NCBI GenBank assembly: GCA_963631395.1
Contig: CAVGQN010000005.1
Coordinates: 8,446 to 72,445 of the forward strand
Direction of reading: 5' to 3'
Source of the DNA: a bacterium
Lineage (GTDB): Bacteria; Bacteroidota; Bacteroidia; Bacteroidales; UBA3663
Length of the DNA stretch: 64,000 bases
In this document: piece after piece, positions 1 through 27,742 of the stretch
Layout of the letters: the number at the start of each line of letters is the position of its first letter
How positions within the stretch are numbered: position 1 is the stretch's first letter
The notes under the pieces: generated by a model
Databases searched by the model: none
Seen by the model: the letters and a program-made list of their open reading frames with translations, nothing else
Told to the model about the DNA's origin: nothing
Program-made: the position numbers and the translations under genes

Positions 1-395
1 ATCTCGTAACAGCTGAGCGAGATGTCATCGTTGTCTCCACTCAGATTGCGGGTCGAGTAGAGGGCCTCTACCTGTATGCCAAAACGCTCTGTGCCGAACG
101 GTCGACCGGCAGGACGGGCGAAGCGTAGGTTGAAGGCAACACCGGCATTGAAACCCATGCTGCCAGATAGGCCTAAGTCCATATCGTCTTTCGGCATGGC
201 ATAATTGCCGCCCACTTTGGGCCCGATGGAGAGGGTGTAAGGTTTCAGGACTTCCTTGATGTTGTCTAATACGATTTCATCATCTGAGGTCATAACAGTC
301 TCGTCCTCGTCCGGTACTAAACGCAGGTCCTGAGCTGATACGGATGCCGCTATTCCGATAGCGGCAAACAATGTGAATAATGCTCTTTTTGACAT
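1..395 (-). CDS. Outer-membrane beta-barrel (porin-family-like) protein, N-terminal part only; continues beyond the window
   Basis: It is absent from the ORF track because it is open-ended. The minus-strand ATG is at 395-393. The translation is MSKRALFTLFAAIGIAASVSAQ (signal peptide), then GPKVGGNYAM...GFNAGVAFNLRF...GIQVEALYSTR, with the alternating pattern typical of small Bacteroidetes OM barrels. It starts 18 nt after the stop of the WG-repeat gene on the same strand. Confidence 0.55.
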   Translation of the reverse strand, partial: MSKRALFTLFAAIGIAASVSAQDLRLVPDEDETVMTSDDEIVLDNIKEVLKPYTLSIGPKVGGNYAMPKDDMDLGLSGSMGFNAGVAFNLRFARPAGRPFGTERFGIQVEALYSTRNLSGDNDDISLSCYE

Positions 396-413
396 AGAAT
401 GTATTGTTTAAAT

Positions 414-1919
414 TTAAAAGTATGGTTGGAAAAGTATGCTTGATTGGACGCGTTCGCCCGTGTCAAGAGACAAGCTTATATCTTTTGTGTGGCTTGCAGT
501 TACTGTCGTTGTCCCCGTAATGGTCTTGCTGCCGTGCGCGGGAATCGTCACAGATACCTCCCGACCAGTTGACCATGTCGCCGTCACTGTCGCGGGCCGA
601 CTAGAGTCGTTGTATATTGTGGCACTGAAAGTTGCAATGTCGTTTTCGTCGGCTCTTATCGTTGAGGGCCCGGGTGCGGAAACACGGAGCCGGATGGGCT
701 GGCGGACCATGAATGTCTTCTCGAGTCTTGCCAAGGTGATTCCGTCGTTTTCGACTGCAATTTTTATAACACAGGACTCTGACCCCTTTCCGACAAACGG
801 TGTTATCGTGTAGGATTTTGTGGCCTCACGGCTGTTGCCCTGTGAGAGCATTGCCTCATATATGCCATCGCCCTTGTCGACAAGCACTCTCGGCGCATTG
901 AGACTGGAGGGAATGCTGCAGTCTATGGCTATGGAGGAAGGCTGGCCTTTCTGGTCCACTTCAATCTCATTGGGATTCTGCTCTGCGGTATACGATTTGA
1001 GCCCTATCTCTCCATCCGTGATGGCGAGCACGCCCTGTCTGCCATTACACTGGGTCAGTATGACCCCGTCATTGTATTGCGTGGCAAACGAATCGAACTG
1101 TGTCGGTACGATAACTGTTTCGCCTTCCTTCAAACCGAACTTCCCATCTTGGGCGAAAACGCTGTATCTTGAAGCTTCGCTAAACCAGGATTCCGAAACT
1201 TCCTTACTGGCATTGTTCCTCTTGTATAGTTGCTTGAATTCGGCTTCGTTCAACTTCTTGATTTTTTGTCCGTTGCTGTCAATTGCGGCGAAGTCTTTGT
1301 TGTAGGCGACAATAGCCGTCCCGCCATAAAAGCAGCTTGACATCGTCATCTCTCCGTAATGGAAATCGACGGGCAATGTGCCATAGGATCGGTCCCGGTC
1401 GTAAGCTTCGGAGATATACATGGTGTAGTTGCCCTGCCGCACGGAAGCCCACCCCTCACTGAATCGCATGGCGTAGTCGAACTGACACCTTACCACTATG
1501 CTGCCATTGGCAGAGATAAAGCCGTATTTGCCGCTACTGTTGATGACTGCAAGTTTGCCTTCCGACACAAACTGACTGCCGAGAGGTGACGGCAAGTAGT
1601 ATTGGGTAGTAATGGCGGTCACGTTTCCCGATTCGCTGATGATGTGTTTCAGCAAATACCTGTTGCCTTCTTTGATACCTGCCAGAGCATAGCCATGCCA
1701 GAATGGGGTAATGAAGTCACAACTGGCATCCATCAACACCTTGTCGCCGCTCTGCACCATGCCCCACTTGCCATTCTGCTGATAGACGTAGAGGTTGCGG
1801 TAATACCGCTGGATGTTGTCGTATTTAGGATGGATGGACCACATGGCAATTTTGGCATCGGCGTCGGCAAATGCCAAAACTGTCAATATGGGAATCAATA
1901 AGTCGCGACGTAAGTTCAT
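414..1919 (-). CDS. Secreted WG-repeat (KWG-type beta repeat) protein with a C-terminal beta-rich domain
   Basis: 501-aa ORF with a signal-like N-terminus (LLIPILTVLAFADA). It has repeated GKWG/GKYG/GKFG motifs (QQNGKWGMV, SSGKYGFI, QDGKFGLK). The C-terminal ~180 aa are T/S-rich and beta-like. Its start overlaps the stop of the upstream gene (ATGA at 1916-1919). Confidence 0.75.
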   Translation of the reverse strand: MNLRRDLLIPILTVLAFADADAKIAMWSIHPKYDNIQRYYRNLYVYQQNGKWGMVQSGDKVLMDASCDFITPFWHGYALAGIKEGNRYLLKHIISESGNVTAITTQYYLPSPLGSQFVSEGKLAVINSSGKYGFISANGSIVVRCQFDYAMRFSEGWASVRQGNYTMYISEAYDRDRSYGTLPVDFHYGEMTMSSCFYGGTAIVAYNKDFAAIDSNGQKIKKLNEAEFKQLYKRNNASKEVSESWFSEASRYSVFAQDGKFGLKEGETVIVPTQFDSFATQYNDGVILTQCNGRQGVLAITDGEIGLKSYTAEQNPNEIEVDQKGQPSSIAIDCSIPSSLNAPRVLVDKGDGIYEAMLSQGNSREATKSYTITPFVGKGSESCVIKIAVENDGITLARLEKTFMVRQPIRLRVSAPGPSTIRADENDIATFSATIYNDSSRPATVTATWSTGREVSVTIPAHGSKTITGTTTVTASHTKDISLSLDTGERVQSSILFQPYF

Positions 1920-3487
1920 TCTCTAACGCGATATCTGTTATACAATTCGACCAAATGCTTGATATTGCAGCAATAGGTTACTTCTGAACCCTCGATGCCA
2001 CTGCAAAGCACACCGACCAGGCGATGCGATTTGTCAACTACAGGCGACCCGCTTTGTCCGCCTATGCCTATGGCTTGAATCTGAATCTGATTGTCGTCGG
2101 GCATCTTGCTAAGGGAGGCTTTGTGTATGGTAGGATGCAGTTCCTTGCCGTCGAAAGTCTGATATCCGACATAGCCGCCCATCGGATAACCGGTGGTGAT
2201 CAGGTCTTCTTCCTGTGGTTTCAGTGTTGTTTCGTCTACCCGTGCCTTCTCTATATCATAGACGGCTCCCATCTCTACAAGATAATCAGGCGTCTTGCGG
2301 GTGTTTAACCGAATGAGAGCGACGTCCTTTTGCGCGTCGCCTGATTCGGCTATCACCTGCGCTTGCTGAAGGTCAATTTGACTGTTGACTTTAGAACCTG
2401 TCAGACCGACTCCGAATAGGATGTGTCTGCCGCCTATCTCCACTGGAGAAATCTGATAACGGTGCAACCAGGCATTCGCTTCGGTTGCAGACAGTCGGCC
2501 TTCGTTTACAATCTCCTGTAGAATCTGAACCAGGTCGCCACTGGTGGACTGACGTGCTTTTTCCATCAGTTGCCGTATCTCTTCTTCCATCTTGGCGCTG
2601 CGATATTCCCAAGGTACAGCGATATGCCGGTTTGTGCCCATTTCGCCGTTTTTCGAGATGAAGAATGCGGTGCCATAATAACCGATGGGAGAGAGCCCTG
2701 TTGTGTTGGTTTGTGCCTTCAAATCGCCATCGGCGTCATAGCCTATGTACCATTTGTCCGGCCAAATATCTTTCAAGACTGTTTTGAATGGGTCGTCCGT
2801 CACGTTTATCTCAAAGTAATAACTGCCATAGACACAAGCGGAGGCATTTTCCATGGCCTGCACCGTCGCGGGAGAAACCGTACTGCTCCATGGGATTAAC
2901 TTCCAGGCACCCCACGCACAAGCCAAGACAAGCACAATTGCTGCGACGATGCCCACTATCTTGGGCAAGTTGTTGCTGGGTATAAACTGCGACAGATTGA
3001 CGGGCACTCCGCCGCACACAATGGCATCGCTCCGCTTGATCTGTTTGGTTTGTCCGTTGTTCAGACATACCCCATTGACTGTCGACCCGTTTTTGCTGTG
3101 GTCTTCCAACCAGGCTTTGCCATTGCGGTCTATCTTGAGCGTCGCATGGTAGCGGCTGACGGTATTGCCGGTTATCTGTATCTCATTGCGCATGCTGGTG
3201 CCGATGCCATAGACAGCCTTGTATTTCGACAAGTCTTCGGGCTGGGGAATTTGGCTCCATAACAGTTCGACGTCACCGAACCGAATGGCGTCGCCGCGCT
3301 TGATGGATACTTGCGTGCCGGGTTTGATGGGACGGTTCATTACGAATGTCCCGTTGTGGCTATTCTTGTCTTCCAGGAGGATGTCTCCGTTGTTGAGTAT
3401 GGTAATCTCGGCATGTAGGGCACTTGCCATATTGCTGTGAAGTACGATGTCACAGTTAGAGTCCCTGCCGACTTTTAGTAGTCTCAT
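1916..3487 (-). CDS. FHA-FHA-TM-trypsin-like serine protease (membrane-tethered)
   Basis: 523 aa. It has two FHA-like modules (LLKVGRDSNCDIVL...NSHNGTFVMN; TGNTVSRYHATLKIDRNGKAWLEDHSKNGSTVNG) and one hydrophobic helix (IVGIVAAIVLVLACAWGAWKLI). A chymotrypsin-fold domain follows, with His (GTNRHIA), Asp (KDVALIRL) and Ser (GGQSGSPVV) motifs. Confidence 0.85.
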   Translation of the reverse strand: MRLLKVGRDSNCDIVLHSNMASALHAEITILNNGDILLEDKNSHNGTFVMNRPIKPGTQVSIKRGDAIRFGDVELLWSQIPQPEDLSKYKAVYGIGTSMRNEIQITGNTVSRYHATLKIDRNGKAWLEDHSKNGSTVNGVCLNNGQTKQIKRSDAIVCGGVPVNLSQFIPSNNLPKIVGIVAAIVLVLACAWGAWKLIPWSSTVSPATVQAMENASACVYGSYYFEINVTDDPFKTVLKDIWPDKWYIGYDADGDLKAQTNTTGLSPIGYYGTAFFISKNGEMGTNRHIAVPWEYRSAKMEEEIRQLMEKARQSTSGDLVQILQEIVNEGRLSATEANAWLHRYQISPVEIGGRHILFGVGLTGSKVNSQIDLQQAQVIAESGDAQKDVALIRLNTRKTPDYLVEMGAVYDIEKARVDETTLKPQEEDLITTGYPMGGYVGYQTFDGKELHPTIHKASLSKMPDDNQIQIQAIGIGGQSGSPVVDKSHRLVGVLCSGIEGSEVTYCCNIKHLVELYNRYRVRE

Positions 3488-3506
3488 AGTTTTTGTCAGA
3501 TTAAAG

Positions 3507-4142
3507 TTAACCGATAGCTCTTAGTGTGGATTTAGAAGAATCCTCCATGACTGAGTCTTCCTTGGCATTGCCCTCGTCGGCGTTGTCTTTCTTTTGCAAC
3601 TTTTTAGTCGGAGTGGCCTTCTTCGTTGCCTTAATTGAATCTTGACGGGCCTTTTCTATCGAATCTTGAGCAACTTTAATTGAATCTTGGCGCTCAACGG
3701 TCTTGATGGAGTCAAGTTTCGCTGCCTCTTTTTGTTTGATGTCTGTTGAATCCGTCTTCTCGATGGCTAACGGACTTGCGTCGCCATTGTCACCCGAATC
3801 GTTCTGTAGGGACTTTGCGCCCCAGACAAGGCCCAATATGACTACAACAGCAGCGGCAGCACCGAGGGTGTACTTTATCCACTGGTTGGATTTTGGTACT
3901 TGGTCCCAATCCAATTTGGCCACATGCGCCAACGACACAATGTCCTTGCGCGTGACGGGGACGGGGACGTTTTGGGTAATCCGGATGCCATTGACATAGG
4001 TGCCGTTGCTACTCTGGTCGACGATGGTCATCTTGCCGGAGGAGGTGATGTTCAAGAGCGCGTGACGGCGGCTGATGACATCGGTAGAGTCGTTAATGAC
4101 TATGTCGCAGTTAAGGTCGCGACCGATGGAATATGTTTTCAT
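3507..4142 (-). CDS. FHA domain protein with a single TM helix and a low-complexity tail
   Basis: 211 aa. N-terminal FHA (YSIGRDLNCDIVI...SRRHALL...DQSSNGTYVNG), then a TM helix (LGAAAAVVVILGLVWGA). The K/D/S-rich tail carries 4 copies of QDSI(K/E)-like units. Confidence 0.8.
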   Translation of the reverse strand: MKTYSIGRDLNCDIVINDSTDVISRRHALLNITSSGKMTIVDQSSNGTYVNGIRITQNVPVPVTRKDIVSLAHVAKLDWDQVPKSNQWIKYTLGAAAAVVVILGLVWGAKSLQNDSGDNGDASPLAIEKTDSTDIKQKEAAKLDSIKTVERQDSIKVAQDSIEKARQDSIKATKKATPTKKLQKKDNADEGNAKEDSVMEDSSKSTLRAIG

Positions 4143-4164
4143 CCTTTTTATTATGTGTTTTACA

Positions 4165-5184
4165 TCAATTGTTATTGCTTGTTTGAGGGTTTGCTGTCGT
4201 GGCCGAATCTGCGCTCACGCTATCGCCCTTCAGCTTGAGCGAATCTACTACCGCGCACTCGGTTTTTTCGGCTTGCGGTACATTCCCTTTTTGCGTAAAG
4301 CACAAGGCCACACTGACGGCCAGGCCCACGATGCAGACGGCGATAAGTCCTATCAGTGAAAATTTGAGTTTTGGGCTCATCTTGGGTCTAAGTTCCGATT
4401 TTGTATTGGTTTCTACGATGGCAATGGTCATATTGTCATGACCGCCGCCAGCGTTGCGTCCCTTGCCGTCGATGACCGTCGCTATCTCGTCAGTGACTGT
4501 GCCGAGTGCGTGTTTCTTGTCCGATGCCATCCCAATCAGTTCGGCTTCGGATACGGACCCGTGTATGCCGTCGGTCGTCAGAACAAAGCGGTCTCCCCGG
4601 TCGTAGGGCAGTTCGATGATGTCGACGTCCATGTCCGGCTTGATGCCCAAAGCGCGGGTGATGACATTCGACTGGGCCGAAAGTCTTGCCTGCTCTTCTG
4701 TGATGACTTTTTGCTTGACCAAATCAAATACCATCGAGTGGTCGAAGGTGCGGAACACCTTGCTTTTGCCCCTCAACTGATAGACCCGGCTGTCACCGAC
4801 ATGTGCGACGATGGCAGACGCCTTGCTGATGAGCAGTACGGTACACGTCGACCCCATGCCCTTCAGGGCCGGTGTGTTGTTGCCGGCTTCGTGGATGGCC
4901 AGATTGGCGCGTCTGATAGCCTTTAACACAATATTCGTGGCCGTATCATCGGGATTGCCTTCCGTTATGCCGGTGATAATCTCACGGACGGCGATGGACG
5001 ATGCTGTCTTTCCTCCGGGACCGCCTCCCATGCCGTCGCATACGGTGACCACAAACCCGTAAGGCGTGTCACAACTGCCATAGGAGTCTTGATTTTCAGC
5101 ACGGCCACCTATCCGCGATTCAGCAAATCCGGTTACGAAGGTTGGCGTTTTTAGTTGTTGGATCAAATCCATAGTTGTTTTCAA
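4165..5184 (-). CDS. PP2C-family Ser/Thr phosphatase with a C-terminal TM anchor
   Basis: 339 aa with PP2C motifs (GRAENQDSY, VCDGMGGGPGG, LTTDGIHG, GGHDNMT) and a C-terminal hydrophobic helix (LIGLIAVCIVGLAVSVALCF). Its start codon directly abuts the stop of the upstream kinase gene. Confidence 0.9.
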   Translation of the reverse strand: MKTTMDLIQQLKTPTFVTGFAESRIGGRAENQDSYGSCDTPYGFVVTVCDGMGGGPGGKTASSIAVREIITGITEGNPDDTATNIVLKAIRRANLAIHEAGNNTPALKGMGSTCTVLLISKASAIVAHVGDSRVYQLRGKSKVFRTFDHSMVFDLVKQKVITEEQARLSAQSNVITRALGIKPDMDVDIIELPYDRGDRFVLTTDGIHGSVSEAELIGMASDKKHALGTVTDEIATVIDGKGRNAGGGHDNMTIAIVETNTKSELRPKMSPKLKFSLIGLIAVCIVGLAVSVALCFTQKGNVPQAEKTECAVVDSLKLKGDSVSADSATTANPQTSNNN

Positions 5185-6108
5185 TTAGTTTAGACCGAGC
5201 CATTTCTTCAATCGCTGCATTATCGTGGGCGGTGGCAACAAGGCTTCCGTCAAGGCTTCTCTGAACTCTCCGGCCGTCTGAAGCCTTTTGGACTGTTCTT
5301 TTTCCGTTGCCTTTGTAATGACGTTCATAATCCGTCCGGGTATTGCTTCGTGTGGGGGCAATGGGTCCCTTAACTGTCGGGTCAGCGTGTCGACCTCGGT
5401 ATCTGCATCAAACGGATTGGTGCCTGTCAGTATTTCGTAGAAGGTGATGCCCAGGGCATACAGGTCTGTGGCTGCATTGATCTGTACCGAACGGGATTTG
5501 TCTCTCAATATCTGCTCGGGCGCTGCATACTGAGGCGTTCCGATGAAGCCATATTGCGAGAATTTGTTGCCGTCGTTCATCCTGGCTATGCCCAGGTCCA
5601 TCAGCCGGATGTTCGAATCGCTTTCGACCATGATGTTGGAGGGCTTGATGTCGCGATGGATTACTCCTCTTGAGTGTATGTACTCCAAAGCATCCAGGAC
5701 CTGAAAGATGGCATGACAAATCTTTTGTACCCTGTCACTGCCCGTGAGAACGTCTTTGGCATACTCGTCGATGTTTTTGCCCGAGACGTATTTGCTGACC
5801 AGGAATATCGGACCGCTGTCGGGCGCATATTCACAGTAACCAATCATCTCGACAAGATTGTCGTGCCGGAAGGCCAAGGAGGCTTCCTGCCGGGCCCTTT
5901 CGCGAATCATCGGATTGTTGGAATAACTGTCCTTGACCCGTTTGATGGCCATGCGGGTCCCATCTTTGACGCGATAACCTAGATAGACAGTGCCCATAGC
6001 TCCACTTCCCAAGGGCATAGACGCAGGGTCATAGCAATACCATTGCCCCATGACGAAGAGGTAGATGTACGGGTCGTCCGGCCTCTGATATACGGTCTTG
6101 CTGCTCAT
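5185..6108 (-). CDS. Hanks-type Ser/Thr protein kinase, soluble
   Basis: 307 aa. G-loop GSGAMGTVY, AIKRV lysine, catalytic loop HRDIKPSN, DLG in place of DFG, and GTPQYAAPE. No TM helix. Confidence 0.9.
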   Translation of the reverse strand: MSSKTVYQRPDDPYIYLFVMGQWYCYDPASMPLGSGAMGTVYLGYRVKDGTRMAIKRVKDSYSNNPMIRERARQEASLAFRHDNLVEMIGYCEYAPDSGPIFLVSKYVSGKNIDEYAKDVLTGSDRVQKICHAIFQVLDALEYIHSRGVIHRDIKPSNIMVESDSNIRLMDLGIARMNDGNKFSQYGFIGTPQYAAPEQILRDKSRSVQINAATDLYALGITFYEILTGTNPFDADTEVDTLTRQLRDPLPPHEAIPGRIMNVITKATEKEQSKRLQTAGEFREALTEALLPPPTIMQRLKKWLGLN

Positions 6109-7757
6109 GGTCGGGTCGGCTTTAGGTTGGTCATTCGGCCTTTGATGGCTTGCGTATATTCTTTATCGCCGGCTTTGATGGCCAATTGCAGCGCTTTGTT
6201 CAGATACAGGTAAGCGGAGTCCGTATTGAATGTAGCACCGCGCCTCTTCGACTTGTAGTCGCACCCGAGTTCGAACAGAGATTTGTAGTCTTCGGAGTTG
6301 AGAGCTACGGCATTCTTCAACAGTCTGTGTGCTTCCTTGTTTTGGGCGCTTATACCGAGGTTGCTCCGGAAGAGAGCGATGGAATCGGCGAAAGTTCCGA
6401 TTTTGATGCTCTCCGGACTGTCAAAGTACAGACGGCTTAACAAGAAGACGGAACGGTAGTCGTTGGCATCAGACAGTTGCTTGAGCATGACGAGACCCTC
6501 ATCGGCAGTACTCCTATCGAGCAACAAGGCCAGGGCTTGGCGATACGATGGCTGTGGGGTCTCTGCCTCTTGGCTGCCAATAGTAGCCATCACTGCTTCG
6601 GCAGTCATCTGGTCAGAGGGAGCGTCGCTTTCTACTTGGTATAGACTTTCTTGGCCTAGGTTCTCTGCATACGCCGTAGGTTCGCTACTGGCTGCGTTTG
6701 GCGCAGCTGCATTGCTGCTTGACTGGTTTATTGCAAAGAGGGCAATTCCGACAACCGCTGCTGCGCTTCCGATAGCGATGCCGATGGCCTTCGAATTGAT
6801 TGCATTGGCTGGATATTGCAAGGGAACGAGCCGCTCTACTGCCACCCGAAACTCCGCTGCGCTCTGATACCGCTTGGAACGTTTCTTTTGTGTAGCGGTT
6901 TTGATGACCTCCCTAATCTGCTTTTGTTTCACATTGCCTAATGGCATTTTCTTCGTGAGTTGCATCTCAAGCACCTCTGCCATTTCACCGTCAAAAGGAA
7001 CCTTGCCGACCAGCAGTTGGTATAATAGAACGCCGACGGCATAGAGGTCAGTGGTTGCATTTTGCGAGTCCGGCAGACCCCTTACCAATTCCGGGGCTGC
7101 GTATTTGGGCTTCCCCATGAATTGCCCATCCACCGTGTACGATGTTTCCTTGGTGTTGTTACCATTGAGTTTCTTCGCGATGCCGAAGTCTATCAACTTG
7201 ATTCTCCCGTCGGAGGTAACCATAATGTTGGAGGGGTCGATATCCCGATGGATATACCCGGCATCATGAAGGGCCATCAACCCGGAGAGGAGATTGCGTA
7301 TTATGGTGAGGGCAAAATGGTAGGGGTCGGTTTGTCGCTTCCCATATAACTCTTGTGCAAAAGGAATAATATTCCCTTTGTGGTCATAGGTCTTGCCTTC
7401 CAGTAACTTGTCCAGGGTGACTCCATGCAGGTACTCACTAACGACATGATAGCGTATCACGGGTTGACCAAGCGCGTCCGTCCCTTTTATTTCCAGGAAG
7501 CCAAGCATCTCGATGAGATTGTCATTGCGGAGTTGGACGGCCGCTTCGCGTCGGGCACGCGCAATCACACGAGCAGGCAAATCGCTATAAAGGAACTTTA
7601 TTGCGACTTCTCTGCGCTGATTGTTATACTCATTACATTGCCAGCCTTTGTAGACCTTACCCATACCGCCTTCGCCTAATGGCGTGTCGGTCGGGTCGTA
7701 TTCGTAATAGATGCCCAATCTGCGCTCTTGATCCCCTTGTAATCTTACGGTAGCCAT
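6105..7757 (-). CDS. Hanks-type Ser/Thr protein kinase with a TM helix and an extracytoplasmic Sel1/TPR-like domain
   Basis: 550 aa. G-loop GEGGMGKVYKG, VAIKF, catalytic loop HRDIDPSN, DFGIA, GKPKYAAPE. TM helix IGIAIGSAAAVVGIALFAI. The C-terminal ~170 aa have Sel1/TPR-like helical repeats (FLLSRLYFD..., LFELGCDY..., YLYLNKALQLA). A 4-nt ATGA overlap links it to the downstream kinase gene. Confidence 0.9.
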   Translation of the reverse strand: MATVRLQGDQERRLGIYYEYDPTDTPLGEGGMGKVYKGWQCNEYNNQRREVAIKFLYSDLPARVIARARREAAVQLRNDNLIEMLGFLEIKGTDALGQPVIRYHVVSEYLHGVTLDKLLEGKTYDHKGNIIPFAQELYGKRQTDPYHFALTIIRNLLSGLMALHDAGYIHRDIDPSNIMVTSDGRIKLIDFGIAKKLNGNNTKETSYTVDGQFMGKPKYAAPELVRGLPDSQNATTDLYAVGVLLYQLLVGKVPFDGEMAEVLEMQLTKKMPLGNVKQKQIREVIKTATQKKRSKRYQSAAEFRVAVERLVPLQYPANAINSKAIGIAIGSAAAVVGIALFAINQSSSNAAAPNAASSEPTAYAENLGQESLYQVESDAPSDQMTAEAVMATIGSQEAETPQPSYRQALALLLDRSTADEGLVMLKQLSDANDYRSVFLLSRLYFDSPESIKIGTFADSIALFRSNLGISAQNKEAHRLLKNAVALNSEDYKSLFELGCDYKSKRRGATFNTDSAYLYLNKALQLAIKAGDKEYTQAIKGRMTNLKPTRP

Positions 7758-7821
7758 GAAGTTTGGGTTAGTTTATATGCCTGTCATTTAAGTCTATAGA
7801 ATATGCCTGCAGTTTCTTGCC

Positions 7822-8601
7822 TTATAGGCCTACAGTGCCACCGCCTCCGTAATTGTTGGATGAATCCGTGTCTACGGTAGAACTTGACGGACGGTTGCCT
7901 CCATTATATGATGAGTCGGGCCCGTTGAATCGAGGCGGGAAGTCTTGCTCGTTGTGTGTGGTATAGCCCTGGCCGGTCGTTTGGTTATTGGTATTGACTT
8001 TCTCTTCATGCTCGTTCCTTACGTCATAGAAACTTTCAGATACATGCAGGCCGAGAGCCTTTGTGTCGATAAGCAAAAGCAGCAAATCGTAGTTCTCGCC
8101 GATGGTGATTACGTCTCCGTTCACGCATTCGATAGGCCGGGCCATAGAAACGCTGTTCTCATTGACAAGAGTTCCATTGGTGGAGCCCAAATCAGAGATG
8201 GTGGCTTCTGTCTTCTCCGGCTTCTTCATCTTGTTGATGTGCAGGTTGGCATGCCGATGAGAAACGGTGCCTTCGCCAAGGATGATGTCGCAATCAGGCG
8301 AATTGCCGATAATGTTCTGACCGATGTGCAATGGCCAGTATTCACCGGCTGCAGTACGCGAAATCGAGTACAGGAATCCGACAATGGGTTTCCCGTTGCC
8401 TTGCGATGGCTGTGGGGATTGGGAGCATCTCTGAGCGGATGCACCTTCTGCTTGAGATGCCATCCCGGGGAAGACAGTCCCGTTGGCTTGTCTTTGATTG
8501 GACGAACGAGTGTATTCTGGGCTTCCTCCAGAAAACGACTGATTGGGATTGAAATCATCTTCTTGACCTAATCCCGGGAAAACGGTTTTGTTTTGTGACA
8601 T
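7822..8601 (-). CDS. FHA domain protein, soluble, with disordered termini; first gene of the operon
   Basis: 259 aa with a central FHA (WPLHIGQNIIGNSPDCDIIL...SHRHANL...DLGSTNGTLVN). Both termini are low-complexity and G/S/N/Q-rich. Confidence 0.8.
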   Translation of the reverse strand: MSQNKTVFPGLGQEDDFNPNQSFSGGSPEYTRSSNQRQANGTVFPGMASQAEGASAQRCSQSPQPSQGNGKPIVGFLYSISRTAAGEYWPLHIGQNIIGNSPDCDIILGEGTVSHRHANLHINKMKKPEKTEATISDLGSTNGTLVNENSVSMARPIECVNGDVITIGENYDLLLLLIDTKALGLHVSESFYDVRNEHEEKVNTNNQTTGQGYTTHNEQDFPPRFNGPDSSYNGGNRPSSSTVDTDSSNNYGGGGTVGL

Positions 8602-8649
8602 AATGTGTAGTTTTTGTGGCGTTGAGGTCTAGGTTGGGTATCGTTAGGT

Positions 8650-8666
8650 ATCTCTTGTTTAGAGAT
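8650..8666. repeat. Left inverted-repeat / recombinase core-like site (ATCTC-TTGTTTA-GAGAT)
   Basis: Read directly from the sequence. It has 5-bp inverted arms around a 7-bp asymmetric spacer. It matches site R at 8930-8946 as an inverted repeat in 16 of 17 positions. Confidence 0.5.
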
Positions 8667-8909
8667 TTGGAATAAGGATAAAGATGTGGTTGTCTGATGC
8701 TTATAATATCGCTCCCTGTCAACTTCCTAAACATTATTCTTGATTACGGATTATTCTTATTGTTGTTTTAATTGATAATATAAGGGCGAAGGCAAGGAAT
8801 AATATATTGTTCTGGCTGAATTTGGCATATCCATGCGGCAAAATCATGGTATTTGCTGAAAGATTTTCTGTTTTTGCTCAGCGTTGTGTGGTTGTTAGGA
8901 AATTCTTTG

Positions 8910-8917
8910 TACCTTTG
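8910..8917 (+). promoter_or_regulatory. Candidate Bacteroidetes -7 promoter box TACCTTTG (TAnnTTTG)
   Basis: It is the only TAnnTTTG match on either strand in 8602-9046. Weak -33-like GTTG motifs lie ~20-25 bp upstream. It points away from the FHA operon in the orientation given. Confidence 0.3.
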
Positions 8918-8929
8918 TCCCGGGTAATT

Positions 8930-8946
8930 ATCTCTAAACAAAAGAT
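8930..8946. repeat. Right inverted-repeat / recombinase core-like site (ATCTC-TAAACAA-AAGAT)
   Basis: Read directly from the sequence. The spacer TAAACAA is the exact reverse complement of the site L spacer TTGTTTA. It lies ~100 bp from the stop of the tyrosine recombinase gene. Confidence 0.5.
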
Positions 8947-9046
8947 TTGGGAGATAGTGGATAGGATGTTCCTCGGTGTCGATGGATGCTGAGGTTCTTT
9001 TTAAAGAGACACTTCTTTTTAAATAGGAGTGGTTGCGTATCCTTGA

Positions 9047-10282
9047 TTACTGATTCAGCCTTTCTAGAATAGCCGCGTTGGCCTGATCTACGACCGAGGT
9101 ATCGAGACTGGCAAGATAGATTCTTGTCGTCGTTTCCGAGTTGTGCCCCATGCCCTCGCTGATTACGCTCAACGGAATGACTTCGGTTTGGGCAATGGAA
9201 GCCCAACTGTGACGTGCCACATACATGGTTAAGTGAATCCGAAGTTGGAGCAAGCCCGATATCTGTTTGAGACTTCGGTTAATGTTGTAGCCTACATTGA
9301 GATAGGCGTACCGCTCGTTGATGCCTACAGACTTGATGACGGGAAGCAGATAGGCGGATTCGTTTGTGGGGTATTTGTTCATGATGCGCTGCATGTCGTC
9401 GGTCCATTGGATGGTGAGCTGTTGGCCCGTCTTATGGCGACGGTAAGATATTCGCCCGTTCCTTAAGTCTGATTTCTTCAGATATGCCATATCTATGAAA
9501 CTCATGCCACGGAGATAGAAACTCATCATAAACATGTCGCGGGCAAAGTCCAGGGCGGGTGCGTGAGATAAATCCAAGTCTTTGATTTGTCTGACAACGG
9601 CCAAGGGTAAGGCTCTTTTGACGGTCTTGTCAATTCCGGTATAGATGCGCCGAAACGGCATGCGGTTTTCGATAACTCCGTCCTCGACAGCGCGGTTGTA
9701 TACGGCACGGAGGATGCGGGCATAAAAGGAAATGGTATTGGGAGTGACTCCCCGCTTGCGCTGCCATGCTTCGTATGCTTCCATAATTTTTGAGTCGAGG
9801 CAATCGAGCATCAAGTCTTCGCCTTGTCTGAATTTCCTGAAACTGTTGAGGGTGGCCCGATGCGTTTCGGCTGTTCTGATTTTCCCGTTCTTCTTTAGTC
9901 TGACAATGACGTTTTCCATATAGTTGAAGAGCGAGTACTCGTGCAGGTAGCTGACGAATTCGTCCACGACATCGTCGGCGGTGTAGGAATAGCCATCGAG
10001 GTCCAGCCGTCGAATGACTTTTGTCAGCCGTTCGACGTCTCCTCTGATGCGCTCGCGTATGGAAAGGACAATGGACTTGCGCTCGCTCTTGCGGGAGGTC
10101 GTAACCATACCACGTTTCTCATCCCATTCGGATGGGAATACGTGGTAGGAAGTTGACAACTGGCGCACTTTGCGCTCATGAATCACTTGATAATAGACAG
10201 TGCCTTCGCCATCTGCAACGGACGATGGCCGGAATTTAACTTTTATGGATGCCATAGGTATGTTGTTGTTTGACATTTCCAC
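9047..10282 (-). CDS. Site-specific tyrosine recombinase/integrase (Bacteroidetes type)
   Basis: 411 aa. Arm-binding-like N-terminus (MASIKVKFRPS...VYYQVIHERK), a SAM-like core-binding region, and a catalytic C-terminus with VARHSWAS and GHNSETTTRIYL (Tyr nucleophile context). Confidence 0.9.
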   Translation of the reverse strand: MEMSNNNIPMASIKVKFRPSSVADGEGTVYYQVIHERKVRQLSTSYHVFPSEWDEKRGMVTTSRKSERKSIVLSIRERIRGDVERLTKVIRRLDLDGYSYTADDVVDEFVSYLHEYSLFNYMENVIVRLKKNGKIRTAETHRATLNSFRKFRQGEDLMLDCLDSKIMEAYEAWQRKRGVTPNTISFYARILRAVYNRAVEDGVIENRMPFRRIYTGIDKTVKRALPLAVVRQIKDLDLSHAPALDFARDMFMMSFYLRGMSFIDMAYLKKSDLRNGRISYRRHKTGQQLTIQWTDDMQRIMNKYPTNESAYLLPVIKSVGINERYAYLNVGYNINRSLKQISGLLQLRIHLTMYVARHSWASIAQTEVIPLSVISEGMGHNSETTTRIYLASLDTSVVDQANAAILERLNQ

Positions 10283-10313
10283 AATGTGACAAAGTGGGGG
10301 ATTGTATAGAATG

Positions 10314-10356
10314 ACTGTGCGCCATACTGCTGGTATTCAGCGGTATGGCGCACAGT
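10314..10356 (-). terminator. Strong hairpin downstream of ftsZ (probable terminator of the dcw transcript)
   Basis: ACTGTGCGCCATACTGCTG-GTATT-CAGCGGTATGGCGCACAGT forms a 19-bp stem with one mismatch and a 5-nt loop. It lies 96 nt after the ftsZ stop. There is no clear U-tract. Confidence 0.5.
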
Positions 10357-10451
10357 ATTGAGTGATAAATGCTATTTTCCCCTGTTCGGTCGTTGCCGGG
10401 CGATGATGATGTCTGGCGGTGATGACGGTAGGATGATTATGTGAGTGATGA

Positions 10452-11693
10452 TTATCCGAAGATATTGCCCTCGACAGAGGTGCTGCCAGGCTGGCCCTGT
10501 GGAGCGGAACTAAGGCCGCACAAGTCATCATACGAACGGCTGTAGGCCGGCGAGTTTTCGAGGCGCGTAGCGAGCTGCTCGTCCGACAAGTCGTCCTTGT
10601 CGAAGATGTAGAAGTTCTTCCGAATCTGGTTCATCCGCATTTCCTCTTCCGTTTCCTCGTCGTAGTACGTGCCGATTTTGGCCTTCGTCTTCGTGGGTGT
10701 TTCTCTGATGTCATCTACCTCAAAGCCGGCTGCAAGTATGATGAAGCGCACTTTGTCTTCGAGGGTATCGTCTTGCAAAGCTCCCCAGATGACCTCGATG
10801 TCCGGCCTCAACTTGTCTACAAAGCGGGTCACTTCGTTCATTTCTTCCATCGACGGTTGACTTTGGGCCGAATAGCAGATTTCGAACAGCAGACGTTTGG
10901 CGTTCGTAATCTTGTTGTCTTGCAGCAATGGAGACACGATGGCCTCGTTGATGGCTTGCGTCACGCGGTTCTCGCCGGAGGCTTCGCCCATGGAAATCAA
11001 GGCTACGCCACTGTTCTCGAGCGTCTTCTTGACATCGGCAAAGTCGAGGTTGATATAACCGACCTTGTTGATGATGTCGGAGATGCTGCGCGTGGCTCGT
11101 GTCAGGGTGTCGTCGGCTTTCTTGAATGCATTGAAGAACTGCAGGTCCGGATAGATGTCTATGAGCCTGTTGTTGTTGACGACGAGAAGGGCATCCACAT
11201 ATTTGCGGATTTCCTCCACACCTCTTAGCGCCATCTCGATTTTCATCTGTCCCTCGAACTTGAACGGGATGGTCACGATGCCTATGGTGAGGATGCCCAT
11301 GTCGTGAGCTATTCTGGCTACGACGGGTGAAGCTCCCGTGCCTGTGCCGCCGCCCATGCCGGCTGTGATGAAGATCATCTTGGTCCCGTCGTCCAAGGCA
11401 TTGCGGATGGCCTCTTCATACTGGAGGGCGTACTCCCGCGCCTTTTCGGGCTGGGCACCTGCACCCAGTCCTTCGTCAGAGATCTGCAGTTTCTGCGGAA
11501 CGGGCGAGTCTTCGAGAGCAGCCCTATCGGTATTGATGATGAGGAAGGTCACGTCCTCAATACCTTCGTTGTACATATTGCGGACAGCGTTGGAACCGCC
11601 GCCGCCTACTCCGGCCACCTTGATGATAGATTTCAGTTGGTCGGCCGTTTCGGCATATCCGAACTGAAGGGTGTCTTGCGTATTGTTTTCCAT
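10452..11693 (-). CDS. ftsZ: Cell division GTPase FtsZ
   Basis: 413 aa with GVGGGGSNAV and the tubulin signature AGMGGGTGTGASP. It is the last gene of the dcw cluster. Confidence 0.95.
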   Translation of the reverse strand: MENNTQDTLQFGYAETADQLKSIIKVAGVGGGGSNAVRNMYNEGIEDVTFLIINTDRAALEDSPVPQKLQISDEGLGAGAQPEKAREYALQYEEAIRNALDDGTKMIFITAGMGGGTGTGASPVVARIAHDMGILTIGIVTIPFKFEGQMKIEMALRGVEEIRKYVDALLVVNNNRLIDIYPDLQFFNAFKKADDTLTRATRSISDIINKVGYINLDFADVKKTLENSGVALISMGEASGENRVTQAINEAIVSPLLQDNKITNAKRLLFEICYSAQSQPSMEEMNEVTRFVDKLRPDIEVIWGALQDDTLEDKVRFIILAAGFEVDDIRETPTKTKAKIGTYYDEETEEEMRMNQIRKNFYIFDKDDLSDEQLATRLENSPAYSRSYDDLCGLSSAPQGQPGSTSVEGNIFG

Positions 11694-11741
11694 ATTGTGG
11701 AGTTGCGACTGATTGTTATCTGATGTGAATGTTGATGCGGG

Positions 11742-12971
11742 TTAATTCTCATCCCCGCTTACGTGAAACAAATCATCGAAGATGGTGCGGGCAGCGCCCT
11801 TGAACAACATTGTTCCCTTCTTTTCCTTTTTGCCTGTCTCGTTGCTCTTGTCTGTTTCGACATTCGATGGCTGCACCGCTTTTTCTTCTTCAAAACAAGA
11901 GTCCGTGCAGTGGTCGAGCATCGTCATGAGCGAAGACATGGAGGGGTCGTTGTCGGAAGAGTTGTAGCATAGCGTGCTGCAACTTCGGGTGCTGATTGGG
12001 CTTATCTCCAACCGTTTCTCGAAGAGGTCGTGCAGGCCTTTCTGTACGGAACATCCGCCTGTCAACACGCATCCGCCTGTCAGTTGGCCTTTGTAGCCGG
12101 ATTGCTCCAGCTGATGGGTGATGTTGGCGATAATCTCTTCGTAGCGTGCTGCGACGATGACGTTCAGTTCTTTGGGCGGGATAGAGGACGGGCTTGCAGT
12201 GTTCTTGTCTGCCGGACGGGAAGCGTCGCTCCACATAATCTTCTGATTCTCAGCCTCTTCGACGCGCAGCCCTTTGGAAGCGATGTCGCGCGTCACGGCA
12301 TTGCCGCCGAGCGGAATGACGGTCAGGAAGCGCAACTTGCCTTCTTTCCAGATGGACATGGTGGTGAGTTGTGCGCCCATATCTACCAGCAATGTTCCAC
12401 CGGACCTTTCGTCTTCGGTCAGGATGTCGTTTTGCACAAGCGGCAGCACATGCCAGCCGGCTATCTTGAGACCGGCTTTCTCCATCACGCTTTGTATGCC
12501 CTGCCTAAGCCGGCTTTTGGCCAGGATGAGCTGATGATGCCCGATGACCTGTTGCCCGGAGACTTCCTCTCCGTTATTATAGAGGTCGATGATATCGTAG
12601 CCCGGGATGCTGAGGTGCCGGCTTTGGTCTTCCATCTGCTGTATGGTTTTTTCCGGGACAAACAACTCGTTGCCCAGAAGGGCAGACGGGCAGTACTCCA
12701 TACTGTGCATGGATATGCCGCAGATGCCGACATAAGCGGAACTCAGATTGACGTTGCCGTGCTCTTTGATGCGGTTGTTGAGTTTGCGCACAAGGTTTTT
12801 GATATGGACGGCGGCCTCGTCGGCATTGACGACCCATCCATGTCGGATGCACCCTGCAGTGGGGACAGACTCTACCGCCATCACGGTGTGGCGGCCTTTC
12901 TTGTCGATTTGGGCCACAGCGGCGCTGATGTGCGATGAACCGAACTGTATAGCGGCGGTTAAGGTTTCCAT
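11742..12971 (-). CDS. ftsA: Cell division protein FtsA (actin-like ATPase)
   Basis: 409 aa with actin-fold phosphate motifs (AIQFGSSHISAAVA, LLVDMGAQLTTMS, VLTGGCS) and a C-terminal amphipathic helix (MLFKGAARTIFDDLF). It sits between ftsQ and ftsZ. Confidence 0.9.
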   Translation of the reverse strand: METLTAAIQFGSSHISAAVAQIDKKGRHTVMAVESVPTAGCIRHGWVVNADEAAVHIKNLVRKLNNRIKEHGNVNLSSAYVGICGISMHSMEYCPSALLGNELFVPEKTIQQMEDQSRHLSIPGYDIIDLYNNGEEVSGQQVIGHHQLILAKSRLRQGIQSVMEKAGLKIAGWHVLPLVQNDILTEDERSGGTLLVDMGAQLTTMSIWKEGKLRFLTVIPLGGNAVTRDIASKGLRVEEAENQKIMWSDASRPADKNTASPSSIPPKELNVIVAARYEEIIANITHQLEQSGYKGQLTGGCVLTGGCSVQKGLHDLFEKRLEISPISTRSCSTLCYNSSDNDPSMSSLMTMLDHCTDSCFEEEKAVQPSNVETDKSNETGKKEKKGTMLFKGAARTIFDDLFHVSGDEN

Positions 12972-13017
12972 TCGAAATTATTTTGTTTTTTTATTTATAG
13001 CGTTTTTACGTTGTGTC

Positions 13018-13761
13018 TTATCGTTTTACGGCCACTACCTGGTCGTTGAATTTCAGGTTGATGGTCTTGTAGGTGTTCCATCCTTTCGTCTCCAGGACTT
13101 TTTTCTCGAAAACATCGTAACGGGCGAGTTTCTTCTCGAAATTGTCGATTGAACCCAACAGAATGGTGAAATCGCCTTTGCGCGGCACCAACCGGATGCT
13201 TTGGTCCTCATCGACATAAATCTGTACAATCCGGTGACGCCACTTCTTGTTTCCATTGAGGAACTTGGCAAACTCATAGAGCGGACCGGTGGCTGTCTCT
13301 TTCGTGACATAACCGGTGACGAGCGGGACGTTGACGGCGTGCCGTGTCGCCTTGTAGGGCATCAGCCGTCCGTCCGTGTCGAGGTAGACATCGGACGAAA
13401 GCCGGGTGCTCTTGATGCGCATGATGGGCTTGCGCTGATAGATGTCGATGCGCATCGTGCCGTTGGGCGTGGGATAGCAGTCGGCATTGCCAATCAGACT
13501 GTTCTGCTCCAGCACCTTCTCAAGACGATAGGCATTGAACTCCCTGATCTTCTTGCCAACAGGGTTCAGCGACACCGAACTGTGGATGATTCGCGTCACG
13601 TCGCGGTTGCCCACAAACTGGGATTCCGCACTGTCGCAGATGACCACGTCCAGTTTGCTGACCACTCGCTCCGGCTGCCCAATACGCCACACGTATCCGC
13701 ACACTGCCAGATAGGCAATGAGAACTATGACGCCGAATATCTTCAGTATGCGTTTGAACAT
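13018..13761 (-). CDS. ftsQ: Cell division protein FtsQ (POTRA-containing)
   Basis: 247 aa with an N-terminal TM helix (IFGVIVLIAYLAVCGYVW). Size and position between murC and ftsA fit FtsQ. Confidence 0.7.
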   Translation of the reverse strand: MFKRILKIFGVIVLIAYLAVCGYVWRIGQPERVVSKLDVVICDSAESQFVGNRDVTRIIHSSVSLNPVGKKIREFNAYRLEKVLEQNSLIGNADCYPTPNGTMRIDIYQRKPIMRIKSTRLSSDVYLDTDGRLMPYKATRHAVNVPLVTGYVTKETATGPLYEFAKFLNGNKKWRHRIVQIYVDEDQSIRLVPRKGDFTILLGSIDNFEKKLARYDVFEKKVLETKGWNTYKTINLKFNDQVVAVKR

Positions 13762-13872
13762 CTTACGGTTTTTATTTCAGCACTTCTTTGTTTCAGCACA
13801 TCTTTTTTATTTCAGATCCATCAACATAGGCCCTTATTTCAGCACTTTTATTTTAGTGCCTCATTTCAGCAC
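13762..13872. repeat. Five copies of the murC 3' terminus motif (minus strand GTGCTGAAAT[G/A]A), filling the murC-ftsQ gap
   Basis: Plus-strand ATTTCAGCAC is at 13774-13783, 13836-13845 and 13863-13872. The last copy is the real murC end. A shorter TTTCAGCAC copy lies at 13791-13799, and the variant ATTTCAGATC at 13809-13818. Confidence 0.8.
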
Positions 13873-15264
13873 CTCGTACACTTTGGGCACAAGCCGCTCG
13901 ATGTCGGTGCCTGCCCCCATCATGACGACTACGTCGAGGTCTCCTTTGGCGCGGAGTTCCTGCAAGTGGCTGACTACCTCGTTCGTGTCTATGACGTAGC
14001 GCTCCGCTTGTATGCCCTTCTTCGCATCTTCGGCTTTGATTTTGTCGAGCAGCCACTCGGAGGTAATGCCCGGGATGGGTTTTTCGCGAGCCGGATAGAT
14101 GGGGATGAGGATGGTGCGCTGCGGTATGCCCAAAGCCTGGGCAAAACCGTCGGCCAGGTCGTGTGTGCGTGAATAGAGGTGAGGCTGGAAGACGACGGTT
14201 ACCTTTCGGCCTTCGAACAGTCGGCCGACGGAGGTCAGACTAGCCCGAATCTCGTCGGGGTGGTGTGCGTAATCGTCGAGGAGCACGAGGTCCGAACGGT
14301 TGATGTAGAAGTCAAAGCGGCGCTTTGCCCCGCCGAAACTCTTCAGTCCCTCGCGGAGCTCTGTTTCTGTGCATCCGTTCAGCAGGCAGACGGTCAAGGC
14401 TGCCGTGGCATTGTCGACATTGACGGGCACGGGCACGCCGGGCTCGAGGTCGCGGAGTATTATTCCTTCCTTGCGGGCCACATAGTCGAAGCGTATAGTG
14501 CCGCCCCCGATGCGGATGTTGGTGGCGTAGTAGTCGGCCTCTTCGGTCGAAGAGTATTCGGCGTAGCGAGCGCTCGGGTTAAGCTGCGAGCAGTCGACCT
14601 TGATGCCCTTGTGCTTGAGCAGCATTCCGTCCGGACGAACCAGCGAGACGAAGTGAGCGAAACTCTCGCGGTAGGCTTCCTCCGTTCCGTAGATGTCGAG
14701 ATGGTCCGGGTCACAGGCCGTGATGACGGCCGTGTAAGGCGAGAGCGTATGGAACGAACGGTCGAACTCGTCGGCCTCGATGACCGTGAGGTCGCTCTTG
14801 TCAGACAGCATCAGGTTGGAGTCGTAGGGCTTCAGGATGCCGCCCAGGAAGGCGTTGCAGTCCACATGGCTTTGCTTGAGGATGTGCGCTATCATGCTCG
14901 AGGTCGTGGTCTTGCCGTGTGTGCCGGCCACGCAGATGCCGCGCTTCTCGCGGGTGATGATGCCGAGCAATTCGCTGCGCTTTACGACCTTGAATCCGTT
15001 CTGCTGAAAGTAGCAGAGTTCGCCGTGGTCTTTCGGAATGGCCGGCGTGTAGCAGACCAGCGTTTCTGCCGGATCTTTAAAACAAGGGTCTACGGCGTCG
15101 ATGTTGTCTTCGAAATGGATTTGTATTCCTTCGCGGATGAGCTGGTCGGTCAAGGTCGATGGAGTGCGGTCGTAGCCTCCTACCCGATAACTGTTTTCGT
15201 TGAAGTAACGTTCGAGCGCCGACATGCCGATGCCGCCTGCTCCTACAAAATATAGACTTTTCAT
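13861..15264 (-). CDS. murC: UDP-N-acetylmuramate--L-alanine ligase MurC
   Basis: 467 aa with FVGAGGIGMSALERY and the Mur ligase P-loop GTHGKTTTSSM. Confidence 0.95.
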   Translation of the reverse strand: MKSLYFVGAGGIGMSALERYFNENSYRVGGYDRTPSTLTDQLIREGIQIHFEDNIDAVDPCFKDPAETLVCYTPAIPKDHGELCYFQQNGFKVVKRSELLGIITREKRGICVAGTHGKTTTSSMIAHILKQSHVDCNAFLGGILKPYDSNLMLSDKSDLTVIEADEFDRSFHTLSPYTAVITACDPDHLDIYGTEEAYRESFAHFVSLVRPDGMLLKHKGIKVDCSQLNPSARYAEYSSTEEADYYATNIRIGGGTIRFDYVARKEGIILRDLEPGVPVPVNVDNATAALTVCLLNGCTETELREGLKSFGGAKRRFDFYINRSDLVLLDDYAHHPDEIRASLTSVGRLFEGRKVTVVFQPHLYSRTHDLADGFAQALGIPQRTILIPIYPAREKPIPGITSEWLLDKIKAEDAKKGIQAERYVIDTNEVVSHLQELRAKGDLDVVVMMGAGTDIERLVPKVYEVLK

Positions 15265-27654: not shown

Positions 27655-27742
27655 GGAGAGATGCTCGAGTGGTTGAAGAGGCACGCCTGGAAAGCGTGTA
27701 AACCTCCAAAGGGTTTCACGGGTTCGAATCCCGTTCTCTCCG
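27655..27742 (+). tRNA. tRNA-Ser (anticodon GGA)
   Basis: 88 nt. Acceptor stem GGAGAGA/TCTCTCC, anticodon stem-loop CACGC-CTGGAAA-GCGTG, a long class II variable arm, and T-arm GGGTTCGAATCCC. CCA is not encoded. Confidence 0.9.

Follow-up and report, generated by a model that had tools for sequence, protein, structure and literature searches.

An invertible promoter segment beside a tyrosine recombinase, probably a phase-variation switch for a Ser/Thr kinase operon in Bacteroidales

The present analysis concerns a 64-kb stretch of a Bacteroidales genome (lineage UBA3663; contig CAVGQN010000005.1 of GenBank assembly GCA_963631395.1), referred to below as the window, whose positions serve for all coordinates. 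On the minus strand, a tyrosine recombinase gene and a seven-gene operon encoding FHA proteins, Ser/Thr kinases and a PP2C phosphatase are separated by a 445-bp intergenic gap (8602-9046), within which a 263-bp segment carrying a promoter box is bounded by short inverted repeats (IRs) and is found in both orientations in natural populations of the species. The locus is very probably a phase-variation switch (inverton) in which the adjacent recombinase inverts the promoter segment and thereby controls the kinase operon. The mechanism and the class of site have both been described before; the unusual element is the FHA/kinase/phosphatase cargo. Invertible promoters are the main route to surface-structure diversity in gut Bacteroidales, with effects on phage resistance, immune evasion and antibiotic resistance. 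Here, a portable recombinase-plus-switch module would also gate an intracellular/envelope Ser/Thr kinase operon, such that subpopulations of a strain would differ in a whole signalling pathway.

Core sites and segment orientation within the species

The two ends of the segment, sites L and R (Table 1), form a 17-nt inverted repeat, 16/17 complementary and 263 nt apart, whose sequences and inverted layout read exactly as claimed by an earlier, sequence-only reading of the window. The repeat is not a product of chance: none of 300 first-order-Markov randomised versions of the 445-bp intergenic region held a 17-nt inverted repeat with one mismatch or fewer. Allowing at most one mismatch in the arms, sites L and R are moreover the sole occurrences of ATCTCT-N5-AGAGAT in the whole window. 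Inverted arms around a complementary centre are thus as originally described, whereas the proposed division of each site into 5-bp arms and a 7-bp spacer gives way, upon comparison with relatives, to 6-nt conserved arms around a 5-nt variable centre. A 7-bp crossover region, T-N5-A, would still fit the revised structure.

Exact-protein look-ups with the FHA protein, the 409-aa recombinase and ftsZ yielded 14 further contigs of the same species, originating from independent metagenome assemblies and two NCBI metagenome-assembled genomes; the same look-up with the 411-aa, GTG-start form of the recombinase found no match. Thirteen of these contigs span both sites and could be scored, with integrases 99% identical and with identical flanks and sites. 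The segment reads as in the window in seven of them (L001, L002, L096, L098, L101, L102 and L104) and is the exact reverse complement in the other six (L003, L095, L097, L099, L100 and L103). Designating as OFF the orientation in which the promoter box points at the recombinase, and as ON its inverse, the tally over 14 assemblies, window included, is eight OFF and six ON. Two interior alleles are common to both states: allele 1 is ON in L003 and OFF in L104, and allele 2 is ON in L095, L097, L099 and L103 and OFF in L096 and L101. That each occurs in both orientations argues for recurrent inversion rather than a single old event. The one mismatch between the sites, at 8942 in the outer arm, remains at the recombinase-proximal site in all 14 assemblies irrespective of the orientation of the segment, which fits strand exchange in the centre.

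The fourteenth contig (L004) stops exactly at the edge of the proximal site, precluding the scoring of its orientation; together with L047 and L061, it is one of three contigs ending at, or within 1 nt of, a core-site edge. Such ends fit the presence of mixed orientations in a sample, branching the assembly graph. We note that many contigs, L018, L021, L024, L078 and L088 among them, break off within 50-300 nt past the recombinase gene. All evidence of inversion coming from metagenome assemblies, the inverted copies might be artefacts caused by the repeats themselves. We give this explanation next to no credence, as the inverted form recurs with clean junctions in independent samples and assemblers; moreover, 17-nt repeats are far below the k-mers used (k141; SPAdes NODE contigs), making graph ambiguity implausible by the logic of de Bruijn assembly.

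Promoter geometry and the proposed switch

A scan of both strands confirmed that TACCTTTG is the sole match to the Bacteroidetes -7 box (TAnnTTTG) in the 445-bp region. It lies inside site R as had been stated, albeit at a distance of 12 nt rather than 13 nt, and its direction in this assembly is consistent with the window representing the OFF state. The inverted form reads TACCTTTG-12 nt-ATCTCTAAACAAGAGAT-48 nt-ATG (FHA). The prediction that inversion would bring the box about 80 bp upstream of the operon ATG is therefore borne out by the six flipped assemblies, in which the distance is 77 nt. As RNA in the ON-state leader, site L would form a small hairpin (-5.4 kcal/mol).

Past site R, a hairpin followed by a T-run and resembling an intrinsic terminator faces the OFF-state promoter. 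As + strand RNA this hairpin, with UUCUUUUU behind it, has a predicted folding energy of -17.8 kcal/mol (z = -3.3); as minus-strand RNA, that is, at the 3' end of the recombinase mRNA, it is weak (-6.3 kcal/mol, z = -0.5). A GC hairpin is kept at the matching position in most relatives. Because it is strong only as + strand RNA, the hairpin would stop an OFF-state transcript before its antisense entry into the recombinase gene, and it may in this way shield that gene from the OFF-state promoter while letting recombinase transcripts read through toward the operon.

The candidate invertase ends 100 nt from site R and is the sole recombinase among the 10 open reading frames (ORFs) annotated at 3507-15264, in agreement with the earlier description of a lone recombinase about 100 bp away. 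Its ORF is intact, and 20 family members agree without exception at residues R256, K282, R355, H378 and Y387. The protein has the Arg-Lys-His-Arg-His/Trp-Tyr catalytic set of the tyrosine recombinase superfamily with Tyr352 at the His-II position, a replacement seen throughout the family. A PDB sequence search with the recombinase found no match, and NCBIfam returned Xer matches only, far below threshold. The gene order on the minus strand is murC, an ftsQ-like gene, ftsA, ftsZ, the recombinase gene, the 445-bp gap and the FHA operon. Between ftsZ and the recombinase gene, a hairpin with a perfect 13-bp stem (CTGTGCGCCATAC...GTATGGCGCACAG, approximately 10330-10372 on the minus strand) is probably the ftsZ terminator; if it ends the ftsZ transcript, the recombinase would need a promoter of its own in the following ~50 nt.

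In the mechanism that we propose, the recombinase most likely binds both 17-bp core sites through their ATCTCT/AGAGAT arms, and strand exchange within the complementary centres TGTTT/AAACA would invert the 263-bp segment, presumably inside clonal populations. In the OFF state, the promoter would face the recombinase gene at its 3' end, producing a transcript that would meet the strand-specific terminator; in the ON state, the promoter would read through site L into the seven-gene operon, such that orientation would set operon transcription. It is conceivable, if unlikely, that the segment inverts with a main output other than ON/OFF control of the FHA operon, for example regulation of the recombinase by convergent or antisense transcription, or that a distant recombinase flips it in trans. 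The OFF promoter does converge on the recombinase gene, with the terminator between them, and single Tsr recombinases of B. fragilis and P. vulgatus act on distant promoters, their paralogues substituting for one another. Set against this are the related loci described below, where a cargo gene always begins 1-278 nt past the distal site on the strand that the promoter would read and where a conserved recombinase and switch are paired with varying cargo; published work, moreover, finds that such invertons are generally unable to regulate the invertases near them.

Table 1. Features of the switch and of the adjoining operon (positions in the 64-kb window)
Feature	Position	Strand	Description or basis
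Site L, operon-proximal core site	8650-8666		ATCTCT-TGTTT-AGAGAT = ATCTCTTGTTTAGAGAT
Site R, recombinase-proximal core site	8930-8946		ATCTCT-AAACA-AAAGAT = ATCTCTAAACAAAAGAT; mismatch at 8942, outer arm
Invertible segment	8667-8929		263 bp; both orientations between unchanged flanks in same-species assemblies
Bacteroidetes -7 box TACCTTTG	8910-8917	+	12 nt inside site R; points at recombinase in this assembly (OFF)
Fixed leader, site L to FHA start codon	8602-8649	-	48 nt; without -7 box
Intrinsic-terminator-like hairpin and T-run, facing OFF-state promoter	8971-9003	+	Terminator scan; hairpin itself 8971-8994
Interior motif GTTTAGGAA (family consensus tGTTTAGCAAA)	8725-8733	-	58 nt inside site L; candidate accessory/arm-type site
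Tyrosine recombinase, candidate local invertase	9047-10276	-	409 aa from ATG at 10276; Pfam Arm-DNA-bind_5, Phage_int_SAM_5, Phage_integrase
Seven-gene operon under proposed control	414-8601	-	Co-directional, gaps of at most 64 nt or overlaps; Pfam, transmembrane (TM)/signal-peptide scan
FHA protein	7822-8601	-	Pfam
Ser/Thr kinase with TM helix	6105-7757	-	Pfam, TM scan
Ser/Thr kinase	5185-6108	-	Pfam
PP2C phosphatase with TM helix	4165-5184	-	Pfam, TM scan
FHA protein with TM helix	3507-4142	-	Pfam, TM scan
FHA-FHA-TM-trypsin-like protease	1916-3487	-	Pfam, TM scan
WG-repeat protein with signal peptide	414-1919	-	Pfam, signal-peptide scan

Conservation with the recombinase family and relation to known invertons

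A protein search with the recombinase returned thousands of relatives. Scanning one genome per species gave 80 loci, 52-76% identical, in Prevotella, Muribaculaceae, Porphyromonadaceae, Alistipes, Phocaeicola sartorii and others. The inverted repeats are conserved along with the recombinase in 28 of these 80 loci, all from other Bacteroidales species, where an ATCTCT-N5-AGAGAT pair directly follows the recombinase gene, 20-240 nt past its stop codon (552 nt in two loci), and encloses a segment of 149-263 bp, or 437 bp in one case. Throughout the 28 loci the arms keep their sequence, in contrast to a 5-nt centre with approximately 19 different values, complementary within each pair. Matched but variable centres are the pattern expected of a crossover region needing homology, as in the core sites of tyrosine recombinases, and the family provides a clean natural example of core-site design, in which the arms are fixed and each locus has a 5-nt centre of its own. 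A TAnnTTTG box, 11-15 nt inside one site, reads outward at 24 of the 28 loci, toward the cargo in 9 and toward the recombinase in 15.

Genomes with two modules use different centres (GAATA in L048 and TATTA in L060); in the genome holding L018 and L090, the single L018 site, on a short contig tail, has centre TGCTT as opposed to TTCCA in L090. Judging from these sequences, private matched centres would keep co-resident switches from recombining together. The closest relatives (P0046, 76% identical, from the human gut) have sites ATCTCTTGTTTAGAGAT and ATCTCTAAACAAGAGAT, 87 nt past the gene, around an unrelated 171-bp segment which, over ten contigs, is in one orientation in seven and its exact inverse in three, including NCBI GCA_902463385.1. 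Two other loci carry three sites each: L041, at +64, +129 and +316 past the recombinase, and L058. Their number suggests that invertible regions are arranged in tandem or nested there, in the manner reported for IP-ARG-2 and B. fragilis IVp-I.

Beyond the core sites, the family shares a layout in which the GC hairpin comes after the recombinase stop codon and tGTTTAGCAAnCATCCAA stands between this hairpin and the proximal site. Within the segment, the promoter end has an A/T-rich stretch continuing into TAnnTTTGc; the other end has tGTTTAGCAAA inside and CATCCAA adjoining the site, and the cargo-side flank is not conserved. Among 31 distinct related invertons, 21 have GTTTAGCAA, with at most one mismatch, beginning 65-68 nt from the non-promoter end, and one more has it at 85 nt; 11 of those invertons have a second copy of the motif directly outside the proximal site, where the window's copy is degenerate. 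Given that the recombinase has an arm-binding domain, these motifs are candidate accessory sites. In the window (8646-8649 and 8947-8950) as in the family, the arm is extended to CCAAATCTCT at the recombinase-side outer flank and at the non-promoter inner end, and no such extension is found at the promoter inner end (aagt/aatt) or at the cargo-side outer flank. With half-site flanks thus asymmetric, one site would be a longer palindrome in the ON state only, which could bias the direction of inversion. We also observed a 16/18 direct repeat (TATTCTTGATTACGGATT at 8735-8752 and TATCCTTGATTACTGATT at 9038-9055), the first copy of which lies within the invertible segment beside the GTTTAG motif and the second of which overlaps the recombinase stop codon.

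Inversion of a short promoter segment by adjacent tyrosine recombinases for ON/OFF expression is familiar from E. coli fimS and its recombinases FimB/FimE, a system that differs from the window locus in its unrelated recombinase lineage, 9-bp IRs, sigma-70 promoter and accessory IHF/Lrp. The nearest known counterparts are the IP-ARG systems, for which Yan, Hall & Jiang (2022; PMC8748976, Supplementary Data 2) reported invertible promoters, with read support, that precede resistance genes carried by conjugative elements. Their IR motifs, TCTCTCTTTAAGAGA, ATCTCTCTTTAAGAGATGT and ATCTCTCCGTAAGAGATGT, correspond to TCTCT-CTTTA-AGAGA, ATCTCT-CTTTA-AGAGAT and ATCTCT-CCGTA-AGAGAT, and their promoters end in TAATTTTGC or TAACTTTGC (TAnnTTTGC) (PMC8748976). 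The window locus shares with IP-ARG-1/2 the IR class (ATCTCT-N5-AGAGAT, as inverted core sites), an outward -7 promoter near one IR with the same TAnnTTTGC end, a homologous invertase gene immediately upstream, on the cargo strand and outside the segment, a variable cargo directly downstream, and the occurrence of both orientations in nature; its recombinase is 48% identical to the IP-ARG-1 invertase over the full length. It differs in its cargo (an FHA/kinase/phosphatase operon rather than resistance or glycan genes), in its place (chromosomal, right past the dcw cell-division cluster, rather than on an integrative and conjugative element), in its size (263 bp vs ~165-190 bp published) and in its centre, TGTTT. 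The same study describes the invertase clade as frequently mobilised and the cargo region that directly follows as highly variable (PMC8748976), which fits both the diversity of cargo seen here and the mobilisation genes beside P0046. A full-text literature search for AGAGAT with Bacteroides inversion found no match, and the supplements of PMC11892184 were without such a motif.

Other Bacteroidales systems are similar in outline. The BT1927-type S-layer/OmpA loci of B. thetaiotaomicron and Tsr26 of B. fragilis, in which PCR and locked mutants verified that the downstream operon is under ON/OFF control (Taketani 2015, PMC4611039; Porter 2020, bioRxiv 10.1101/521070), likewise have an adjacent recombinase, a ~250-300 bp segment with an internal -7 box, and 17-nt imperfect palindromes that vary in the middle from one paralogous locus to another, but their arms are GTTAC-N7-GTAAC and their cargo consists of surface proteins. 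B. fragilis Tsr19 (BF2766) with IVp-I/IVp-II, and P. vulgatus BVU2677/BVU2684 (PMC4747536, PMC12940148), also place the recombinase just upstream of an invertible TAnnTTTG promoter; they differ in their IR motif (TACTTNNNANGTAANNGAA), in that one recombinase also acts on a distant promoter, and in their cargo of extracellular polysaccharide and Mfa1 fimbriae genes.

A number of findings tell against the proposed switch. No clear -33 TTTG was seen at canonical spacing upstream of the -7 box, and the weakness of the terminator hairpin on the recombinase-sense strand means that read-through could give some operon expression independently of orientation. The window recombinase is assigned as the likely invertase by linkage only. 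Approximately half of its relatives are without a recognisable IR pair downstream, a generic IR search in the 52 loci without an ATCTCT-type pair having turned up variant or other IRs in no more than about seven, and its closest relatives, the P0046 recombinases, adjoin mobilisation genes. Lastly, the window's own interior allele (allele 0) is OFF in 5/5 assemblies, a small sample and possibly not an independent one. Two single-nucleotide polymorphisms set this allele apart from those found in both orientations; counted from site R they are interior positions 10 and 12, in the 8918-8920 region just past the -7 box.

The constancy of allele 0, the arm mismatch in site R and the fact that the comparison is of assembled consensus sequences only give some ground for regarding the two orientations as fixed strain polymorphisms left by rare past inversions at a fossil inverton that no longer switches. 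We regard this as quite unlikely, considering that two other alleles each occur in both orientations inside one study's assemblies, that the recombinase retains an intact ORF and its catalytic residues, that contig L004 breaks exactly at a site, and that homologous systems of the same IR class have read-level support for switching. Alternatively, the recombinase might be the integrase of a mobile element, with the repeats representing an attachment site or element end, a view to which its phage-type Pfam integrase architecture with an arm-binding domain, the position of the 76%-identical homologues directly behind excisionase-like (HTH_17), NikA-like and other mobilisation genes, the many relatives lacking an IR pair and the frequent carriage of the invertase clade on conjugative elements (Yan et al. 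2022, PMC8748976) lend some colour. It is nonetheless very unlikely: the gene is flanked by ftsZ on one side and the FHA operon on the other, the annotated ORFs around it include neither mobilisation nor excision genes, the sites are inverted rather than direct, the segment inverts rather than excises, and it holds an outward promoter at a conserved position. An attachment site of an integrative element was accordingly rejected at this locus on the grounds of its neighbours, its inverted repeats and the inversion of the segment. Inversion of the promoter segment by the local recombinase remains our preferred reading.

The kinase operon and the cargo of related switches

Four proteins of the operon have a single TM helix and the WG-repeat protein a signal peptide, so that the set spans the envelope. 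A further signal-peptide gene (MSKRALFTLFAAIGIAASVSAQ...) begins approximately 20 nt past the WG-repeat stop codon and runs off the window (1-400, minus strand); from its proximity, the operon may extend further. The same operon order (FHA, kinase, kinase, PP2C, FHA) recurs in L022 after the same recombinase and inverton, there beside a UvrD gene instead of ftsZ, and a related operon encoding Zn-ribbon-FHA, kinase-FHA and FHA-trypsin proteins is found in L057. The recombinase-switch-kinase cassette is thus a recurrent module occupying different chromosomal places in at least three Bacteroidales lineages, that of the window included.

In other loci the first gene beyond the distal site varies, its start lying mostly less than 50 nt past that site. 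These first genes encode NusG/UpxY-like antiterminators of capsule loci (L028, L069), DUF3575 (L041, L060), OmpA (L035), a BspA-type leucine-rich repeat protein (L034), an EcoRI-type methyltransferase (L054), DUF4007 (L039) and an ECF sigma factor (L085), in addition to the radical-SAM/ClpP/ABC genes of the P0046 loci and the FHA proteins of L022 and L057. In the P0046 loci (L005-L015, human gut, Prevotella-like), the recombinase and inverton stand right behind the mobilisation genes HTH_17, NikA-like and AbiEii, and the inverton, seen in both orientations, precedes a radical-SAM / small peptide / radical-SAM / ClpP-like / ABC transporter cluster resembling a peptide-maturation locus under phase variation, akin to those of ribosomally synthesized and post-translationally modified peptides. 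The switch also precedes the EcoRI-type adenine methyltransferase in L054 (1894-2913) and a DUF4007 protein in L039 (2803-3528) and L042, possibly representing phase-variable epigenetic or defence cargo.

With respect to the function of the window operon, the closest comparison is with the kinase-kinase-phosphatase (KKP) defence/toxin-antitoxin modules (PMC11341870), which comprise a cold-shock-domain (CSD) kinase (PfkA-like) and an FHA-fused kinase (PfkB-like) in the order phosphatase-kinase-kinase. The likeness concerns the cargo only, namely two Ser/Thr kinases and a PP2C phosphatase in one operon with FHA domains, KKP modules being often integrase-linked; the window operon has no CSD, carries its FHA domains on separate proteins, follows the order kinase-kinase-phosphatase, and includes membrane anchors as well as protease and WG-repeat partners. 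Since neither kinase is fused to CSD or FHA (Pfam detects kinase domains only), membership in KKP was rejected. PADLOC matched the kinases to PD-T4-6 and mad6 through the generic kinase domain only and the PP2C phosphatase weakly to PDC-M21C, and found no match for the FHA and WG proteins; the operon was accordingly assigned to no defence system. We tentatively suggest, without much confidence, that this phosphosignalling-plus-protease cassette is under heritable ON/OFF bet-hedging as portable cargo, and that it may be a costly conflict system (phage-defence/abortive-infection-like) or an envelope-remodelling programme. If so, it would be a phase-variable eukaryote-like pathway of Hanks-type kinases, unlike the usual surface-structure cargo. 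The practical value of the locus is modest, lying in a natural ON/OFF allele pair with which to study poorly understood Bacteroidales kinase cassettes.

The remainder of the window is unremarkable chromosomal sequence for Bacteroidales, with the dcw cluster, a tRNA and SusC/SusD polysaccharide-utilisation genes. Rfam found no match in or near the switch; a match to the archaeal C/D snoRNA sR1 at 10399-10446 (+), scoring 24 bits against a gathering score of 45 bits, was taken as a chance one. Across the window, the tRNA at 27655-27742 alone reached the Rfam gathering threshold.

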